Positions 1 through 33,780 of a DNA stretch of 36,400 nt are shown piece by piece. The position numbers and the translations under genes were made by a program. This stretch comes from a virus (taxonomy: Duplodnaviria; Heunggongvirae; Uroviricota; Caudoviricetes), in IMG/VR virus record IMGVR_UViG_2563366874_000010. The stretch is one strand, 5' to 3'. How positions within the stretch are numbered: position 1 is the first letter of the stretch; the number at the start of each line of letters is the position of its first letter. The notes below the pieces were generated by a model. It did no database searches and was not told the DNA's origin. It worked only from the letters and a program-made list of their open reading frames with translations.

Positions 1-1053
1 TTACGGGGTAATGCCAACCGCTGCCGCCACTTTGTCGCCACTTGGCAGCGTTGCCAGAGGATTGAAACGGAGCGCCGTTTCAAGATGATCCGGTGCCAGA
101 TGTGCGTAACGCATAGTCATTTTTATATCGTGATGTCCGAGGAATTTTTGCAAAGCAAGGATATTTCCACCCGACATCATGAAATGCGCCGCAAACGTAT
201 GGCGCAGAACGTGTGTCAGTTGACCGCGAGGGAGCACGATAGACGTTTTTTCCATCACGGATAAAAATTGAAAATAGCAGTCTGTAAAGAAATTGAACCC
301 ATCAAGCGCCATGATCTCTTCGTAAAGCTCTTTACTGATAGGGATGCTCCTGTTTTTCTTCCCCTTCGTTCTTACAAAGGTAATTCGGTATTTGGTCACC
401 TGTGAGCGGGTAAGATTTATTGCTTCTCGCCAGCGTGCGCCTGTGCTTAGGCATATCTTGACTACCAGTGCCAGAATTGGGTTCTGACGTTTGCAGTCAG
501 ACAGTAATTCGATAATCTGCTCATGTGTAAGCCATGCCATTTCCTTTTCTGCGATAGTGAATTTGCGCATCTTCTCTAATGGGTTTGGAAGTGTCCATTC
601 ACCCAGGCGGGAAAGTTCTCTGAAAACGCTGCTTAGATGGCTTTGCTCCAGGTTAACAGTAACTGGGCTTGCTCCTTTCTTCCATTTTTCACTGAAGTAG
701 ATTTCACCAGTAAGGCGTTTATCGCGATAGTGAGCAAACATTTTTGAGGTGAGATCAGTTGCAAGGGGATTTCCCAAGGCGTCAACCATCAACAGCAGCT
801 TGTTGTAGACATTCTGTCCGGCAGTAAGAGATTTGCCATGTAATTTGAACCATAGCTCAACCATATCTTTCAGTGTCCGACGATCCACTGATTCGCCCAG
901 CCAGGGCTTTGCTTCTATTTCCCCCATGGTGTATCGCTCGAAGGCCAGTGCTTCGCCTTTGGTGGCGAATTGTTTACGCACACGACGCCCATTACGTCCG
1001 GCGGGGTAACATTCGCAAAGCCATTTCCCTGTGGTGAGTTTTCGTACTGCCAT
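1..1053 (-). CDS. int: Tyrosine-family integrase, P2/186 type; complete, stop codon at 1-3
   Basis: 350-aa ORF; C-terminal region has R...HxxR...Y catalytic-type motifs (LRHTFAAH, MTMRYAHL); sits at the prophage end next to the repeat at 19-40. Confidence 0.9.
   Translation of the reverse strand: MAVRKLTTGKWLCECYPAGRNGRRVRKQFATKGEALAFERYTMGEIEAKPWLGESVDRRTLKDMVELWFKLHGKSLTAGQNVYNKLLLMVDALGNPLATDLTSKMFAHYRDKRLTGEIYFSEKWKKGASPVTVNLEQSHLSSVFRELSRLGEWTLPNPLEKMRKFTIAEKEMAWLTHEQIIELLSDCKRQNPILALVVKICLSTGARWREAINLTRSQVTKYRITFVRTKGKKNRSIPISKELYEEIMALDGFNFFTDCYFQFLSVMEKTSIVLPRGQLTHVLRHTFAAHFMMSGGNILALQKFLGHHDIKMTMRYAHLAPDHLETALRFNPLATLPSGDKVAAAVGITP
19..40. repeat. Left copy of a 22-bp imperfect direct repeat (CGCTGCCGCCAcTTTGTCGCCA); candidate att core or Int-binding site
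   Basis: 21 of 22 bp identical to 33546-33567; similarity stops abruptly on both sides in both copies. Confidence 0.5.
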
Positions 1054-1077
1054 AAAAAAGCCCTCATATCAGAGGGC
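1054..1077 (-). terminator. Hairpin (GCCCTC/GAGGGC stem, 6-nt loop) followed by a U6 tract on the minus-strand transcript, directly upstream of the int ATG
   Basis: Stem 1060-1065 pairs with 1072-1077; A-run 1054-1059 on + strand gives U-run on the leftward transcript; the GAGGG of the stem is the only Shine-Dalgarno-like sequence for int. Confidence 0.4.
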
Positions 1078-1136
1078 TAAATTTAACTGTATATACAACC
1101 AGCAATCAATGTGTGATTGCTATGAAACATACATTG

Positions 1137-2813
1137 CTAAGCAACATGTAGTTCATCGTTGGCGGAAGTGGCTGCTTTGCGTTCCTGCTCAATAGCTAGT
1201 GACTCTCTATATTCTTTCGCCTCTGCAAACATTGTCCAGTGGGCATTGATGTTCATATCTTCAATAACCGATTTAATTTCTTTAATATTTACGTTAAAAA
1301 ACTCTTTTCGTGAGTTAATTTTATTGACCTGCTTTTCGTTGAAGACTTTATGCAGATGATTTTCTAATGACGGTGCATCATCACTATAAATCATCGCATG
1401 AACATCGAACGAAAAAGGAACACTAGCATCCCCAAGTTCACGAACACGATCAAGTGGTTCAAGGCGGCGTGTCATTCCAATTTTATATACATCTTCGCCA
1501 AATGAGCCAATATTGCTAATTATATAAACATGGCCTGATCTAGTTTGTTGAGCCATAGAAATAGCTCGTTGGTTTTTAGCTTCAGCTTCTTCATATTTTA
1601 ACTGTAGTTCAGCTATTTTTTGCTCTAAAGCTAAGCGTTGTTCTTCATTTGCAAGCATAAGCTCTTTCGTTGCTTTATTTATAGCTTGCTGAATAGCTTT
1701 CTCTTCTTTTTCGGCTTCTTTTATCGCTTTTTCATACTCTCTACGAGCTCTTTCCTCTTCACGAAGCTGTTCTTTAATCCTTCTTTGCTCCTCTTTTTCT
1801 TCGAGCATAATTTCATTAACTGCAACTCCCCATTTTAGCTCGTTGAGTCGTGCCTGAAGATAGATGTCACTTATTTTTGCGGATCTAAAAGCAGAGCCAT
1901 TATAATTTACAAGTTGAAATGCATCTTTTATTTCTTGGGAAAGTTTTCCAAAATTGTTGTGTTTGACTTTTGATAAAATACTGTCAACTCTTCCATTGAA
2001 GGCATCCAAAACAAAGTTGATAGCAGTATTACGCCTGTTTTGCTCAACATAATCACACGAAGCTGCTTTATTAGTTTTTATTAATAATTTTGTTAACTCC
2101 CTGGCTTTTTGTAATTCCTTGCCTGCATCTGTAAACTCATAATTTTCTGCCAATTCATCAAGTACACTACGGTTAGGGATGATCCATTCATCGCCATAAC
2201 CTTCAATTTTATTTTTCATTGATTTGGCAACTGCTTCATATTTTTCTGCAAACTCTTTAGCTTCATATGCTGAACCAGCAATCTCTTTTGCTCTTTCTTC
2301 TGCATCGGAAATAATTTTTACTGCGTTGTCATTAGCATTTGAGATCAACTCATTTGCTTTACTGTTGGCATTATCAAGACGTTCTTTGGCTTTCAGGCGT
2401 GCATCGCGAGCGTCTTTGGTGATTGCTATAGCTTCGCTATTAGCGTTGCTTATTGTTATCTGAGCTTGATAACTTGCTTCGTTTACTGTCTTAGCTGCCT
2501 TTATTTGGGCTTCTTCTATTTTTTGCCTAGCTATTGAGTCTGCATTTTTTATCTTATTCTCTGCCTCCATCACTGCGCTGTGCAATTCTTCGTATTGCCA
2601 TAATGGTGCTGCTCGCCCTTCAAGCTCTGATAGATCTCGTGCAGTCTGTGCTAACTTTTCTTGATTTTCACTCAGTTGGCTGGAAAGGGCTATGTTGTTA
2701 GCCGTCAGGTTATCTATGGCGGCTTTGTGTTCTTTACTTTGCTTAAATAATATTATAGCTAGAACAGGGGCGAGAAATGCTAATAAGAATATAACGATGG
2801 AAAATGAATTCAT
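1137..2813 (-). CDS. Membrane-anchored coiled-coil protein with C-terminal GIY-YIG-like (T5orf172/DUF4041-type) domain; cargo gene
   Basis: 558-aa ORF; N-terminal hydrophobic helix (IVIFLLAFLAPVLAIILF), about 350 aa rich in A/E/K/N/Q heptad-like repeats, C-terminus GHVYIISN...VYKIGMTRR...R...H; RBS AAGGA upstream; visibly AT-rich. Confidence 0.8.
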   Translation of the reverse strand: MNSFSIVIFLLAFLAPVLAIILFKQSKEHKAAIDNLTANNIALSSQLSENQEKLAQTARDLSELEGRAAPLWQYEELHSAVMEAENKIKNADSIARQKIEEAQIKAAKTVNEASYQAQITISNANSEAIAITKDARDARLKAKERLDNANSKANELISNANDNAVKIISDAEERAKEIAGSAYEAKEFAEKYEAVAKSMKNKIEGYGDEWIIPNRSVLDELAENYEFTDAGKELQKARELTKLLIKTNKAASCDYVEQNRRNTAINFVLDAFNGRVDSILSKVKHNNFGKLSQEIKDAFQLVNYNGSAFRSAKISDIYLQARLNELKWGVAVNEIMLEEKEEQRRIKEQLREEERARREYEKAIKEAEKEEKAIQQAINKATKELMLANEEQRLALEQKIAELQLKYEEAEAKNQRAISMAQQTRSGHVYIISNIGSFGEDVYKIGMTRRLEPLDRVRELGDASVPFSFDVHAMIYSDDAPSLENHLHKVFNEKQVNKINSRKEFFNVNIKEIKSVIEDMNINAHWTMFAEAKEYRESLAIEQERKAATSANDELHVA

Positions 2814-9480: not shown

Positions 9481-9672
9481 GAAACGTTGCCCCCAGGAGG
9501 ATTCATTCTGATGGGGGCTAGTTTGGGCAACGAGTGAAACGAGGCGTAAGGTGGGTGGGCATTTTGATAAGTGATCGTCCGCTTTGTGTCAGAAGCAGAA
9601 GTGGGAGTGTCTGAGACTCTCTAAAAGTTGATGATTCACTTACAAAACCATTTTCCTGATGAATGCTTACAC

Positions 9673-10008
9673 TTACGAATGATCATTCTGTTTAGTCTTC
9701 ATGAGAAAATCCCGAATCTTTGCCAAGTTTGAATTTTCGGGGATTGAATCCATGTACGGATCACGCTCAAACACTAATTGCTCAGATTCAACGAAAGCCT
9801 GCCACTCTACTGGGTCTAGCTCAAATCCCATTGCTGTCATATCACTTTCATCTTCCCCCTCGATCCAGTGGACTAAATAAAACAATTCATCATCAGGAGA
9901 ATCATCCTCACCATCAACAATATCAACATCGGTTACAGTGATACGTAGGGTGGGATCGATTTTTGAGACATAAATTCCTAACTGTGGTATAGGGGGAATA
10001 TTGTTCAT
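9673..10008 (-). CDS. Small strongly acidic protein, unknown function; cargo
   Basis: 111-aa ORF with strong RBS (AAAAGGAG) before ATG at 10008; D/E-rich runs (DGEDDSPDDE, EGEDESD); convergent with the SOS module. Confidence 0.7.
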   Translation of the reverse strand: MNNIPPIPQLGIYVSKIDPTLRITVTDVDIVDGEDDSPDDELFYLVHWIEGEDESDMTAMGFELDPVEWQAFVESEQLVFERDPYMDSIPENSNLAKIRDFLMKTKQNDHS

Positions 10009-10387
10009 GGAAACTCCTTTTATTGGTGTTTGCTATTTGAATAAAAATACGCCAAACAGAGTGTTAACTGTGAATATGGAAAGAATCGTTGTAAGTACCC
10101 CGCTTAGGTGTCCCATTCTATTTTAGAGGTTCTCGTGCATATGGATTATGTTATCTGAAAGCTAACTTCCGCTTCCCGTTCACAGCGAACATTCATCTTT
10201 GTAAACCCGTATGATCCGTTTTTCAAGTGGCCATTCAGATACGGATTTTCACTTCCTTGACAGTGCATGACTATGCTGCATGAAATCGCATGATCGATTG
10301 AGGATCGTCTTTGCTCAGATCCGCCAGAACTGGCGGGCTTTTGCTCATGTCATGCATGTGCATGAAAACCACTGCATAAAGCGGGCA

Positions 10388-10406
10388 GGCGTGGCGGGGA
10401 TACGAG
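10388..10406. other. Candidate cos cohesive-end sequence (GGCGTGGCGGGGATACGAG)
   Basis: First 13 nt match the recalled P2/186 cos 19-mer family (GGCG[A/T]GGCGGGGA); hairpin plus T-tract (10321-10342) just upstream. Confidence 0.35.
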
Positions 10407-10458
10407 CGCGCGCTATCACCGAAAATAGCCAAAATACTTCTGGAAAACAGAAAGTTGA

Positions 10459-12405
<1,947 letters not shown>

Positions 12406-12409
12406 TGAA

Positions 12410-12444
12410 CAGCCCTAACGTTATGAACGCTAAGGCTGATTTTT
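12410..12444 (+). terminator. Weak hairpin plus T-tract after the RT gene
   Basis: CAGCC (12410-12414) pairs with GGCTG (12434-12438), followed by ATTTTT. Confidence 0.3.
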
Positions 12445-12446
12445 CG

Positions 12447-13475
12447 TTAAAATTTATATGGTTTGAATTGTAATATATTATCTTCAAGCCATTTATTTAA
12501 TTCCTGCATCCTTTTCTGTAAGGGTATTAATTCGTTCCTCACAAACACTAAACTCGCTTTTTCCACATCCCCAAACCCCCCAACATTATTCGGCATAATC
12601 CCCATCATTTGCGGTGGCACACGATGCGCTGCCATCATGTCATCGCGGCTGACATTTTTGATATTCAGAAACTCATCCTTCGCCGCGACTTCTGACAATG
12701 GGATGATCTGAAGTCCGTCCTTTTTGCCGTTAGGCGAGTACATAAACAGATTGCGGAAGTTACCTGGTCCTTTGGCGCTTTTCATCGCATTGCGGAGGTT
12801 GTTCACATCCTCCTGGTTCTGCGCAGCATCGGTCATGTACATGATGAAGCCTGCATGACTGCCGTTAATGTAATACGTGCGGCGGAACAGCGTGGCGGAC
12901 TCGTTGAGCAGAGCTGACGGAATGGCAGAAAGATAACCGGGCAGGCCGTAGATCTCCTGGTTGATGTCCGGTTCCAACAGATGAAAGATGCTGCCTTTCG
13001 TGAACTGATACGGCTGGGTTGTCATACCGTATTGCACAAACCAGTAGGTATCCAGGTCTAACCCGCGTCGGGTGTATTTTGCCAGCGCAGGCTCAAGAGC
13101 GATGACCTCTCCGAAGCGGTTCGTGCGTTTTTCCAGGTAGGCGTTACCAAAAACCAGATAGTCCTGTACAAAACGCGAAAAAGCCTGCTGGCTGAGCAGC
13201 GGGTGAGGGATGTAGGTGCTGGTCAGAATGTTGCATTTCACCGCAATTGGTGAACTGTGATGCACGGCAGCGCGGAAGGTGCGCGCCAGTCCGTCAAAGC
13301 TGACAGGAGGCTCATACCAGCGATCTGTCTGTACGCATTCCACATAGTCCAGCAGTTCGCGGCGGTCAAGTACAGGAACGGGATCACCGAAGCTGAATGC
13401 TTCGGCTGAAGTCTGGCTTTTATGCTTGAGCTGATTCGTCGCCGCAGCGCGGTTTTTCTTACTCTTTCCCATCAA
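12447..13475 (-). CDS. Q: Portal protein, P2 gpQ-like
   Basis: 342-aa ORF, leftward, overlapping the terminase gene; size and position as in P2. Confidence 0.85.
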   Translation of the reverse strand: MMGKSKKNRAAATNQLKHKSQTSAEAFSFGDPVPVLDRRELLDYVECVQTDRWYEPPVSFDGLARTFRAAVHHSSPIAVKCNILTSTYIPHPLLSQQAFSRFVQDYLVFGNAYLEKRTNRFGEVIALEPALAKYTRRGLDLDTYWFVQYGMTTQPYQFTKGSIFHLLEPDINQEIYGLPGYLSAIPSALLNESATLFRRTYYINGSHAGFIMYMTDAAQNQEDVNNLRNAMKSAKGPGNFRNLFMYSPNGKKDGLQIIPLSEVAAKDEFLNIKNVSRDDMMAAHRVPPQMMGIMPNNVGGFGDVEKASLVFVRNELIPLQKRMQELNKWLEDNILQFKPYKF

Positions 13476-19979: not shown

Positions 19980-20373
19980 AGCAGTGCCTTATGTCCGAAA
20001 TAACCCGGACAAACTGCATCTGTTTGTGGATAACGGTTCGCTGGTTGCCACCGGAGCCAGCTCCATGTCATGGGAGTATCGTTACACCCTGAACGTAGTG
20101 ATAGAGGATTTCAGCGGCGACCAGAATCTGTTGATGGCCCCGGTTTTGCTGTGGCTGCGAGATAACCAGCCCGATGCAATCAATAACCCGGTGTTACGGG
20201 AAAAGTTATTCACCTTTGAGGTGGATATTTTGCGCAACGATGTCTGTGATATCAGCCTTAACCTGCAACTGACGGAACGTGTGCTGGTCAGCACTGACGG
20301 CACTGTGTCCAGCGTTGAAGCTGTAGCGGAACCCGATGAACCTGAAGAAGTGTGGACGGTGAAACGTGGCTGA
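19942..20373 (+). CDS. R: Tail completion protein R, P2 gpR-like
   Basis: RBS AGGAG before GTG 19942; sequence LFVDNGS matches recalled gpR; start uncertain. Confidence 0.75.
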   Translation: MNKPQSLRHALNKAVPYVRNNPDKLHLFVDNGSLVATGASSMSWEYRYTLNVVIEDFSGDQNLLMAPVLLWLRDNQPDAINNPVLREKLFTFEVDILRNDVCDISLNLQLTERVLVSTDGTVSSVEAVAEPDEPEEVWTVKRG

Positions 20374-20815
20374 ACTGCAGAAGGTGGACGACTGGCTGAG
20401 TGCTTTGCTGGCGAATCTGGAACCAGTCGCAAGAAGCCGCATGATGCGCCAGCTGGCGCAGGAACTTCGGCGGACACAGCAGCAGAATATCAGGATGCAG
20501 CGCAACCCTGACGGCAGCAGCTATGAACCGCGACGGGTAACAGCACGCAGTAAAAAAGGCCGTATCAAACGTCAGATGTTTGCAAAGCTGCGCACCACAA
20601 AATACCTGAAAACTGCCGCCAGTGCCGATTCTGCCAGCGTGCAGTTTGAAGGCAAGGTACAGCGCATTGCCCGCGTTCACCATTATGGCCTGCGCGATCG
20701 TGTCAGTCGTAAGGGACCGGAAGTCCGTTACGCAGAGCGTCGCCTGCTGGGTGTAAATGATTATGTTGAAGCAAATATTCGTGATATTTTGCTAAGTTGG
20801 CTAAGCCAATATTAA
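20366..20815 (+). CDS. S: Tail completion protein S, P2 gpS-like
   Basis: 149-aa ORF overlapping the R stop; P2 order. Confidence 0.85.
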   Translation: MAELQKVDDWLSALLANLEPVARSRMMRQLAQELRRTQQQNIRMQRNPDGSSYEPRRVTARSKKGRIKRQMFAKLRTTKYLKTAASADSASVQFEGKVQRIARVHHYGLRDRVSRKGPEVRYAERRLLGVNDYVEANIRDILLSWLSQY

Positions 20816-20816
20816 T

Positions 20817-21512
20817 TCATGTCAAATATTGATAACTTTTATCAATTTTAAGTTTGTGAAATTTGGTTATCTTTGAATCAATGTATAAATCTATGAACAT
20901 TGCTATCCCTATCATAAATATAAATAGAATGCTTAAATAAATAATGGGGGTGGCAATCATTATTGTAAATTTGTTCTTGTCTGTAGTTTTTGCTAACTCT
21001 TCTTGCTTTTCAGGAATTAGCAAGTAGCTACAAATGAAATCTTTTGTGGCTTGTTGGATTGAAGTGATCTTATCAAGCTGTGACTTGTCAACACATACAT
21101 CTGGTGTGATATTCCATTCAGATGTGTATGGTATGTTTTGTGCGTGTTCTGGTTTCATCCAAAAGGAATCTTTTGTTTCTCTATGTGTGATTTCAACCAA
21201 ATTTACGGGTTCTTTGGCGATGAAATAGGTAAATTTATAAAAACAAAATGCTGAGGTCATAATGACTGCAATTCCAAATGAGACGATAAATATTTTATGT
21301 TTTTTAATATGGGGTTTTGTGCTTAACTTATATTTGCAAAGACTAAGTCTAATAATTGGCTTTGATATTCCAATCTTTGATATCAAAAAGTCTTCTTCTG
21401 GATAGGATGTGTTTAACCATGACCAAAAAGCTGAGATGCCACCTATAAGCCATTTAAATATAAGACCACCAATGGCCGTAGCTAAAAATGTATTTATTTT
21501 ATCGATTTCCAT
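20817..21512 (-). CDS. AT-rich multi-pass membrane protein, unknown function; cargo between S and V on the opposite strand
   Basis: 231-aa ORF with RBS AAAGGGGA; hydrophobic segments near residues 8-32, 75-97 and 185-208; composition far more AT-rich than flanking tail genes. Confidence 0.75.
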   Translation of the reverse strand: MEIDKINTFLATAIGGLIFKWLIGGISAFWSWLNTSYPEEDFLISKIGISKPIIRLSLCKYKLSTKPHIKKHKIFIVSFGIAVIMTSAFCFYKFTYFIAKEPVNLVEITHRETKDSFWMKPEHAQNIPYTSEWNITPDVCVDKSQLDKITSIQQATKDFICSYLLIPEKQEELAKTTDKNKFTIMIATPIIYLSILFIFMIGIAMFIDLYIDSKITKFHKLKIDKSYQYLT

Positions 21513-21548
21513 ATAGATCCCCTTTGGGTTGAGCTATCTGGGATTATA

Positions 21549-21566
21549 TGTATGAGAGACAGAACA
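21549..21566. promoter_or_regulatory. Possible late-promoter activator site TGT-N12-ACA upstream of V
   Basis: TGTATGAGAGACAGAACA; spacing to the V ATG is short, so assignment is tentative. Confidence 0.3.
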
Positions 21567-21612
21567 ATGAAGCGAGGTTCGTTAAAATAGGAATCGCGGG
21601 CATTCTTTCTTC

Positions 21613-22191
21613 ATGAATGCACAATTAACCGAAATCATGCGCCTTATCACCAACCTGATCCGCACTGGGGTAGTCACCGAAGTGGACCGGGAAAACTGGC
21701 TTTGTCGGGTGAAAACGGGCGACCTTGAAACCAACTGGATTAACTGGTTGACGCTGCGTGCCGGGAATGCCCGCACATGGTGGCGACCATCGGAAGGTGA
21801 GCAGGTGGTGCTGCTGAGTCTGGGCGGCAATCTGGAGACTGCCTTTGCGCTGCCCGCTGTCTATTCGAATCAGTTCGCGCCACCGTCTACGTCGGCGGAC
21901 GCCTGCGTGACAGAACATCCTGACGGTGGCTGGTTTGAATACGAACCCGCCAGTGGGCGCTGGTATGTCAGGGGCATCAAATCAATGGTCATTGAGGCCG
22001 CTGACAACATCACCATGAAAACCAGTGAGTTTGTACTGGAGGCTGACCGCACGCGCATTAACAGCGAAGTGGTGATCAATGGTGGCGTTGCCCAGGGCGG
22101 CGGAGCGATGAGTTCTAACGGGATCGTGGTTGATGCGCATCAGCATACTGGCGTCCTGAAAGGCGGCGACACAACCGGAGGTCCGGTATGA
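21613..22191 (+). CDS. V: Baseplate spike/assembly protein V, P2 gpV-like
   Basis: 192-aa ORF; N-terminal pattern (IRTG...E.D......V.TG......W..W...RAG..RTWW.PS.GEQV) matches recalled gpV. Confidence 0.9.
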   Translation: MNAQLTEIMRLITNLIRTGVVTEVDRENWLCRVKTGDLETNWINWLTLRAGNARTWWRPSEGEQVVLLSLGGNLETAFALPAVYSNQFAPPSTSADACVTEHPDGGWFEYEPASGRWYVRGIKSMVIEAADNITMKTSEFVLEADRTRINSEVVINGGVAQGGGAMSSNGIVVDAHQHTGVLKGGDTTGGPV

Positions 22192-26264: not shown

Positions 26265-26271
26265 ATTCCTG

Positions 26272-26294
26272 CCCCGCGCCTGCGGGGATTTTTT
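26272..26294 (+). terminator. Rho-independent terminator after the tail fibre operon
   Basis: CCCCGC-GCCT-GCGGGG hairpin followed by ATTTTTT. Confidence 0.7.
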
Positions 26295-26305
26295 CACCCC
26301 GTCGT

Positions 26306-26323
26306 TGTGCCATTTCCCATACA
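26306..26323. promoter_or_regulatory. Late-promoter activator site TGT-N12-ACA upstream of the sheath gene
   Basis: TGTGCCATTTCCCATACA, centred about 85 bp upstream of the FI ATG. Confidence 0.55.
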
Positions 26324-26398
26324 AACCCCATCGCGTGCACCCTGCGCGTATCAACCAGAACATAGGCAGACCCCCTCTACAACCGGAGAGACTGCCTT

Positions 26399-33567: not shown

Positions 33568-33780
33568 TCGTTAAAAAACAGTGCTTCTAACATCATGATT
33601 TTAAAAGGCATAAATTTTAGACAACAAAAAACCCACCAACCTTGAACCGAAATGGCGGGGTTGATGGGCTCCACAAAATGGGGACATCAAAGAAAAGCAG
33701 TGGCACTAATTAAGACTGATGCCCTGCGGAAAAGTTCTGCGGTTGTGCAAAAAAATTTCATTTTCAGGGCAACTTCAGTT

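Follow-up and report, generated by a model that had tools for sequence, protein, structure and literature searches.

Genes and regulatory features of the S–V locus

The window, i.e. the whole 36,400-nucleotide stretch of DNA analyzed here, is a P2-like prophage (Peduoviridae, 186-type CI/CII) located beside ybjL and RybB in Escherichia coli, and the region is 99.9% identical to that of E. coli NZ_OZ547117. The gene of the host small RNA RybB flanks the prophage immediately beyond its right end and is situated between ogr and ybjL. The prophage contains three AT-rich islands, which are the cassette between the tail genes S and V described below and two known defence systems. The first of these is a PD-Lambda-1 homologue between int and CI, named 'SNIPE associated domain-containing protein' in RefSeq; PD-Lambda-1 is reportedly one of the anti-phage systems described by Vassallo et al. 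2022. The second is a type I-C retron RT-Toprim (Ec67-like) at the tin/old locus, between a replication gene and the portal gene, with AT-rich flanks at about 9670–12600; Rfam reported no msr/msd RNA at the retron at the gathering threshold. No cargo is apparent at the Z/fun hotspot, which separates the tail-fibre assembly gene from the sheath gene: the RefSeq annotation of an identical prophage has a gap of 134 bp there (window ~26265–26398).

Features of the S–V locus and of the prophage. Positions are those of the window; a dot marks features without a strand.
Feature	Position	Strand	Basis
AT-rich cassette, GC 0.32	20775–21612	.	blastn vs empty-site phage 500465-1
gpS tail-completion gene, last of the O late operon	20366–20815	+	PF05069, E=5.5e-42
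DUF6216-family gene, 231 aa, predicted three-pass inner-membrane protein	20817–21512	-	ATG start
Shine-Dalgarno AAGGGGA of the DUF6216 gene	21518–21524	-	from sequence; about 5–6 nt before ATG
Candidate sigma-70 -10 TATAAT of the DUF6216 gene	21543–21548	-	from sequence
TGT-N12-ACA dyad, putative Ogr/late-activator site of pV	21549–21566	.	all prophage alleles; P2 annotation of the equivalent stretch
-35-like TTCATT (3/6)	21566–21571	-	candidate DUF6216 promoter
gpV baseplate spike gene, first of the V late operon	21613–22191	+	PF04717 and Apex motif; P2 annotation
PD-Lambda-1 homologue, AT-rich	1137–2813	-	PADLOC model, E 1.6e-119
Type I-C retron RT-Toprim	10465–12405	+	PADLOC RT-Toprim_I-C, E 2.4e-217
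RybB host sRNA gene	33623–33701	-	Rfam RF00110, 104 bits

The boundaries of the cassette are sharp. Homology to the empty-site phage 500465-1 ends at position 20774 and returns exactly at 21613 (blastn), and compared with sister phages that have an empty slot, the cassette takes the place of the final 13 codons of S, of the S–V spacer and of the entire upstream region of V. Its GC content is far below that of the whole prophage (0.505; window 1–33500) and of the flanking late genes (~0.57). The exchanged 3' end of S (positions 20775–20815) differs between alleles (ANIRDILLSWLSQY vs TVTLDVLLSWLKSF). Since the C-terminal codons of gpS are inside the exchanged cassette, cargo exchange rewrites the C-terminus of the tail-completion protein.

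The cassette encodes a member of the DUF6216 family on the strand opposite to S and V. One base separates the convergent stops, as the stop codon of the DUF6216 gene occupies 20817–20819 and gpS ends at 20815; at the other end, the ATG is 100 bp from the gpV start. The GC content of the ORF is 0.31 (GC3 0.30) compared to 0.53 in S and 0.57 in V, and it reaches a minimum of 0.28–0.34 in 300-nt windows over the ORF. The Shine-Dalgarno region is purine-rich in all alleles. The sequence-only reading of this locus had described an antisense, AT-rich gene with three transmembrane (TM) segments and a strong ribosome-binding site that stops 1 bp from the S stop, and all of these features were borne out.

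AT-rich insertions are often junk and this gene is rare, as would be expected of functionless hitch-hiking DNA or a mis-called ORF, but this reading has negligible probability. The chance of 231 open codons given the composition of the ORF is 9e-9, and in 2000 shuffles of the cassette the longest open frame was 170 codons, compared to 238 observed. Pairwise dN/dS among the DUF6216 alleles is ~0.1 overall with saturated synonymous sites (pS about 0.7); by region it is lowest in the N-terminal 66 residues (0.05) and higher in the middle domain (0.15) and in TM2 (0.27). The close members keep a constant length of 231 aa across genera, and the ORF is intact in decayed prophages. The open-frame probability and the low dN/dS over saturated synonymous divergence essentially refute the junk reading: the DUF6216 ORF is a real, constrained gene and its chance origin is excluded.

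In the equivalent place, the P2 record contains a terminator of the O operon after S, the minus-strand gene of Orf30 (261 aa, nonessential), an activator-binding site of the V promoter (pV), and a transcription start of the V operon at the V start codon itself. The terminator after S together with the pV site and start before V place the DUF6216 gene at an operon boundary and not within an operon. The gene had previously been described as wedged into the late operon. This description is imprecise: according to the P2 record, the site is the junction of the O and V operons and not the interior of one operon. A weak AT hairpin (20826–20847) was considered as an intrinsic terminator between S and the DUF6216 gene and dropped, as it is not conserved in other alleles. 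With the P2 transcription start located at the start codon of V, the V mRNA would be leaderless. No Shine-Dalgarno sequence is present before V in the window (21549–21613) or in the corresponding regions of two other sequences (L003, 2018–2082; L031, 1740–1809).

The 100 bp between the DUF6216 gene and V could contain two interleaved regulatory elements. In the window as in the empty-site phage, 55.5 nt separate the centre of the TGT-N12-ACA dyad from the V ATG downstream of it. On the opposite strand, a candidate sigma-70 promoter of the DUF6216 gene would use the dyad as its 17-bp spacer. The -10 position reads TATAAT, TATACT or AATACT in other alleles. The candidate promoter is weak by consensus, and a consensus promoter scan did not call it because its -35 element matches at only three of six positions. 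Read from the sequence, a leftward sigma-70 promoter may overlap the late-activator site, and this apparent interleaving of a cargo promoter with pV is new.

Predicted architecture and the DUF6216 family

The 231-aa protein matches the Pfam family DUF6216 (PF19723) at residues 41–203 with 45.9 bits against a gathering cut-off of 27.3 (E 5.8e-12); the N-terminal third does not align to the profile. RefSeq names the identical gene 'DUF6216 family protein', and a PF19723 match is precomputed for 25 of 25 close homologues. Hence the earlier statement that no homolog is recognisable was wrong. Family membership is based on a score above the curated threshold and on the architecture and invariant residues shared with distant members. 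The remote homology search suggested with the original reading thus found a family and no functional match. PHROGs and NCBIfam scans and a profile search against PDB sequences gave no match to the 231-aa protein, and PADLOC-DB v2 models (E limit 10) matched neither it nor a distant 268-aa member. Nothing in the sequence and structure searches attached a function to the protein. They also revealed no homology to a structural or morphogenetic protein; such homology had been named as an observation that would speak against a cargo gene.

Three hydrophobic segments were found by the Kyte-Doolittle method, in agreement with the three TM segments proposed previously, and they coincide with the long helices of an AlphaFold2 model (mean pLDDT 82, pTM 0.61). 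The predicted layout is TM1 (residues 8–29), a basic loop (33–73), TM2 (72–96), a domain of ~85 aa with a beta3+alpha fold (97–182), TM3 (183–207), and a basic tail that is conserved and ends with SYQYLT. The net charge is +6 in the loop, +2 in the tail and -3 in the domain. This charge pattern favours an N-out topology with a periplasmic two-cysteine domain, as judged by the positive-inside rule only. A multi-pass inner-membrane location is predicted from the three helices and the positive-inside pattern, and this architecture fits an envelope-facing role.

In an alignment of 29 sequences with identity down to 16%, the columns that are invariant across the family are A124, W133, C140 and C161, all located in the domain between TM2 and TM3. 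The two cysteines probably form a disulfide bond that would stabilise the predicted periplasmic domain. Distant members have 225–246 aa and the same three-TM layout. The close members are highly diverged alleles (45–63% identity), in which the first 66 residues and the tail at the C-terminus (...KSYQYLT) are near-invariant, and TM2 and the middle domain vary more. TM1 is very conserved and contains an invariant lysine, K20.

DUF6216 is a small and rare family without any attached function. It comprises 25 clusters at 90% identity (5.8 billion clusters searched) or 45 representatives with E < 1e-3 (1.84 billion proteins searched). Relatives were found in 5 of 185,579 species representative genomes and in 10 of 2.9 million IMG/VR contigs; the gene is present in 5 of 5426 complete E. 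coli genomes. Isolated phages (INPHARED, 50,697 records) gave no tblastn match for this protein or for two distant family members. The hosts all belong to Enterobacterales: E. coli, Salmonella, Enterobacter, Klebsiella aerogenes, K. michiganensis, Citrobacter, Cronobacter, Kosakonia, Tatumella and Pantoea. A preprint on silencing of antiviral immunity by H-NS (10.64898/2026.09.05.749240, 'H-NS silences antiviral immunity...') contains one mention of DUF6216 and may be relevant to what is new here.

Cargo turnover and prophage relics

The orf30/S–V locus of P2-like phages was noted earlier as variable (PMC3091744; PMC6823313). A survey of S–V content across P2-like prophages had been proposed for this locus, and we performed it on 78 IMG/VR contigs whose gpV is at least 97% identical to that of the window. 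The slot is polymorphic among these near-identical phages: 59 contigs have an empty slot and 19 have an occupied one. The empty slot is 68 bp long in sister phages with 94–98% identical S, V and W. All occupied slots have a GC content of 0.31–0.36, and the cargo gene is on the minus strand in 18 of 19. DUF6216 genes occupy eight of the 19, with close members in three contigs and a distant 268-aa member in five (Pfam E 5.9e-13), and thus are the commonest cargo of the S–V slot in this lineage.

Other sister phages carry an FRG-domain protein matching the PADLOC candidate PDC-S15 (E 8.5e-32) or a SIR2_2 protein matching LmuA/ThsA models (E about 8e-22 to 1e-21). Of the 19 cargo-bearing slots, 13 encode predicted membrane proteins. 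At least ten cargo types occur in the slot (contigs L032–L111), including a 307-aa protein with four C-terminal TM helices, membrane proteins of 145 and 250 aa, and unknowns. The S–V cargo of Cartapus (176 aa) was considered as a DUF6216 relative and rejected (hhalign P 0.14). Likewise, the 741-bp S–V ORF of phage R18C is not a DUF6216 gene, being a plus-strand gene for an HNH-like protein. Its CxxC...H...CxxC motifs (R18C contig 566–1321, plus strand) suggest an HNH-type nuclease, and it is annotated as 'hypothetical' in R18C's own paper.

The DUF6216 genes themselves are exchanged as cassettes. Between the window and a second E. coli prophage, dS is 2.3 in the DUF6216 gene and 0.145 in V, and the cargo proteins are 61% identical. 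This contrast points to old allelic lineages that are swapped as cassettes, with no fast evolution in place. Co-variation of the cargo allele with gpV was ruled out, since cargo proteins with only 61% identity occur beside V genes with 97% identity. Close homologues in prophages of E. coli, Tatumella, Kosakonia and unclassified Enterobacteriaceae are all located at S–V, antisense and 100 bp from V. More distant members have varied contexts: one with 21% identity is in the S–V slot of a divergent P2-like prophage, another is at the Q-lysis moron site of a lambdoid prophage, and a third adjoins a gene for an Mrr-type nuclease. No conserved partner gene was found in any context examined. The gpS–gpV position, the presence/absence among near-identical phages and the foreign base composition identify the DUF6216 gene as accessory cargo and not a core gene.

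These observations also bear on a role in the phage life cycle, such as modulating when lysis occurs, helping to assemble the tail or baseplate at the membrane, or taking part in DNA injection by virions of the phage itself. The position between lysis/tail-completion and baseplate genes and the promoter region shared with pV could be read in this way. But the gene is absent from most sister phages, which are presumably viable; it is antisense to both late operons; the P2 gene in the same place is annotated as nonessential; DUF6216 members occur in lambdoid prophages as well; and the gene is kept where all structural genes are deleted. This makes a life-cycle role very improbable.

The last point comes from prophage relics, in which the DUF6216 ORF is intact in all cases. 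Pantoea gossypiicola has only fragments of S, V and W but preserves the 231-codon ORF. Further relics are located at the ybjL attachment site in Klebsiella michiganensis (L119) and Enterobacter (L004–L008 and L122–L124). The Enterobacter relics contain no structural genes; only 44 nt of the V 5' end are left upstream of the DUF6216 gene (88.6% identity), and a GIY-YIG gene flanks it. One Enterobacter lineage additionally contains a remnant of the portal gene and an SLFN/AlbA_2-ATPase gene at the former tin/old position. In K. michiganensis, where the DUF6216 protein is encoded on 194 contigs, the gene order is ybjL-ogr-(140 nt of V)-DUF6216-(portal remnant)-GmrSD. The ACA half of the pV dyad is lost in the relics, and the perfect TATAAT is kept in Klebsiella. 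Survival of hotspot cargo after the loss of all virion genes argues for a host benefit that is independent of phage production. The DUF6216 gene appears domesticated in relic islands at ybjL, and these islands look like defence islands made by stripping a prophage to its hotspot cargo.

The benefit to the host could also be unrelated to phages. The protein could be an envelope-level lysogenic conversion factor conferring immunity to a membrane-targeting bacteriocin or to a contact-dependent or type VI secretion toxin, or fitness under stress or during colonisation. Retention in chromosomal relics of several genera points to a host benefit of either kind, and ancient alleles with 45–63% identity would fit immunity specificity classes. 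Immunity genes for pore-forming colicins typically encode small multi-pass inner-membrane proteins and are antisense, which the DUF6216 gene resembles. But no adjacent toxin gene was found in any context examined, Pfam, PDB and NCBIfam searches gave no similarity to known immunity families, and the relic neighbours and sister S–V cargo are anti-phage-type genes. We regard phage-unrelated conversion as fairly improbable, though as the main alternative to an anti-phage function.

Possible anti-phage function and comparison with known systems

We propose that the DUF6216 protein could be an inner-membrane anti-phage protein expressed in the lysogen, and we consider the case for this function to be evenly balanced. 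The gene would be a horizontally exchanged moron in the S–V ('orf30') slot, between the end of the O operon and pV. Its product would act as a stand-alone inner-membrane protein that is N-out and crosses the membrane with three TM helices, its basic loop and tail lying in the cytoplasm and its domain of ~85 residues in the periplasm. Transcription would run leftward in the lysogen from the gene's own sigma-70 promoter, interleaved with the pV activator site; during lytic growth, binding of the late activator and convergent transcription of the O operon would shut the gene off. Protection of the lysogen from incoming phages would take place at the envelope, most likely by a block of genome entry across the inner membrane, like that of P22 SieA, HK97 gp15 and T4 Imm; action as a membrane effector of abortive infection would be less likely.

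One argument for the anti-phage interpretation is location: the sister cargo of the S–V slot includes defence-type genes, and the other two islands of the prophage are defence systems. Hotspots carry non-defence cargo too, and guilt by association is weaker for a slot with mostly unannotated cargo. The rarity of the gene also counts against an anti-phage function. AT-rich cargo such as the DUF6216 gene may be silenced by H-NS. The sequence-only reading had assigned the gene to lysogen-expressed cargo such as superinfection exclusion, abortive infection or membrane toxins. The slot turnover, the defence-type genes in sister slots and in the other islands, and the relic survival agree with this cargo class, for which expression in the lysogen and an anti-phage action are predictions here.

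As an effector of abortive infection or a toxic membrane protein, the DUF6216 protein would detect an infection by means of its periplasmic domain or a signal from the host, depolarise or permeabilise the inner membrane, and kill the cell. Three TM helices, the invariant K20 in TM1 and motifs of small residues, which suggest that helices pack together or oligomerise, could serve such a role, and the gene is single and partnerless in any context. TM proteins are frequent among the suicide effectors of known systems (Rousset et al. 2022, PMC9122126), and membrane proteins are frequent among the S–V cargo. But the protein has no recognisable sensor or enzymatic domain and matched no PADLOC effector model, and a constitutive partnerless pore-former would be toxic. 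We judge the effector mechanism improbable. It is indistinguishable from entry exclusion in silico; we consider entry exclusion more likely than abortive infection.

The gene, the family name and the variability of the orf30/S–V locus are already on record. New are the identification of DUF6216 as the main cargo family of the S–V slot, the finding that defence-type genes share this slot, and the apparent domestication of the gene in the ybjL relics. The DUF6216 gene is a reasonable experimental lead and a good candidate phage-exclusion protein. A broader hypothesis, which we put forward tentatively and hold to be possible rather than probable, is that DUF6216, possibly together with P2 Orf30, could be an unrecognised single-gene entry-exclusion family with a periplasmic two-cysteine domain of no known fold; that S–V could be a third defence hotspot of P2-like phages, in which the cargo promoter is wired into pV; and that the ybjL relics could be domesticated mini defence islands. 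If correct, this would add a new envelope-level anti-phage family that consists of a single gene and differs from known exclusion and defence proteins. The Enterobacter and Klebsiella relics offer a concrete route by which chromosomal defence islands can arise, in which a prophage is stripped to its hotspot cargo. In clinical Enterobacterales, genes of this kind influence how susceptible the bacteria are to therapeutic phages. If the functional assignment fails, DUF6216 is still a conserved, host-retained prophage membrane protein, worth a phenotype screen and unremarkable otherwise.

The closest positional counterpart of the gene is P2 orf30 (NP_046770). It occupies the same slot, is also antisense and AT-rich, and its start codon lies beside the pV activator site. 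Its product has the same order of elements: TM1, a loop, TM2, an ~85-aa two-cysteine domain, TM3 and a basic tail; the cytoplasmic loop is longer than in DUF6216. Orf30 has no hit in Pfam, including DUF6216. In a profile-profile alignment of Orf30 with DUF6216, the cysteine pair, TM3 and the tail are in register, with an hhalign score of 25.7 that was reached by none of 300 shuffles preserving the TM layout (mean 15.0, sd 2.7, max 25.5). The hhalign probability is only 7.8% (P 0.0044), which makes the homology suggestive and not established; the alignment suggests that Orf30 and DUF6216 may be remote homologues.

The nearest functional analogue of the DUF6216 protein would be P22 SieA. [quoted passage not shown] The sieA gene is likewise AT-rich (GC 0.33–0.35), antisense and convergent with the last virion-protein gene. 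It has its own promoter, and that of the DUF6216 gene is a candidate seen in the sequence. In contrast to the DUF6216 protein, SieA has 162–164 aa, lacks the 85-aa two-cysteine domain and belongs to a different phage family. Exclusion is demonstrated for SieA and would be expected for DUF6216 by analogy; sequence homology between the two was rejected (hhalign P 0.14, 14 aligned columns).

The tin/old ('TO') and Z/fun loci of P2-like phages are short and AT-rich and carry validated anti-phage systems (PMC9122126; PMC9519451). In contrast to them, the S–V/orf30 slot was not analyzed as a defence locus in PMC9122126, PMC9519451 or the iLund4u preprint, and no report of a functional test of its cargo was found in the accessible literature. 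Like tin/old and Z/fun, the slot surveyed here combines conserved anchor genes with a high turnover of cargo, and, if the proposed function is correct, it would be a third P2-like locus to mine for defence genes beside these two.
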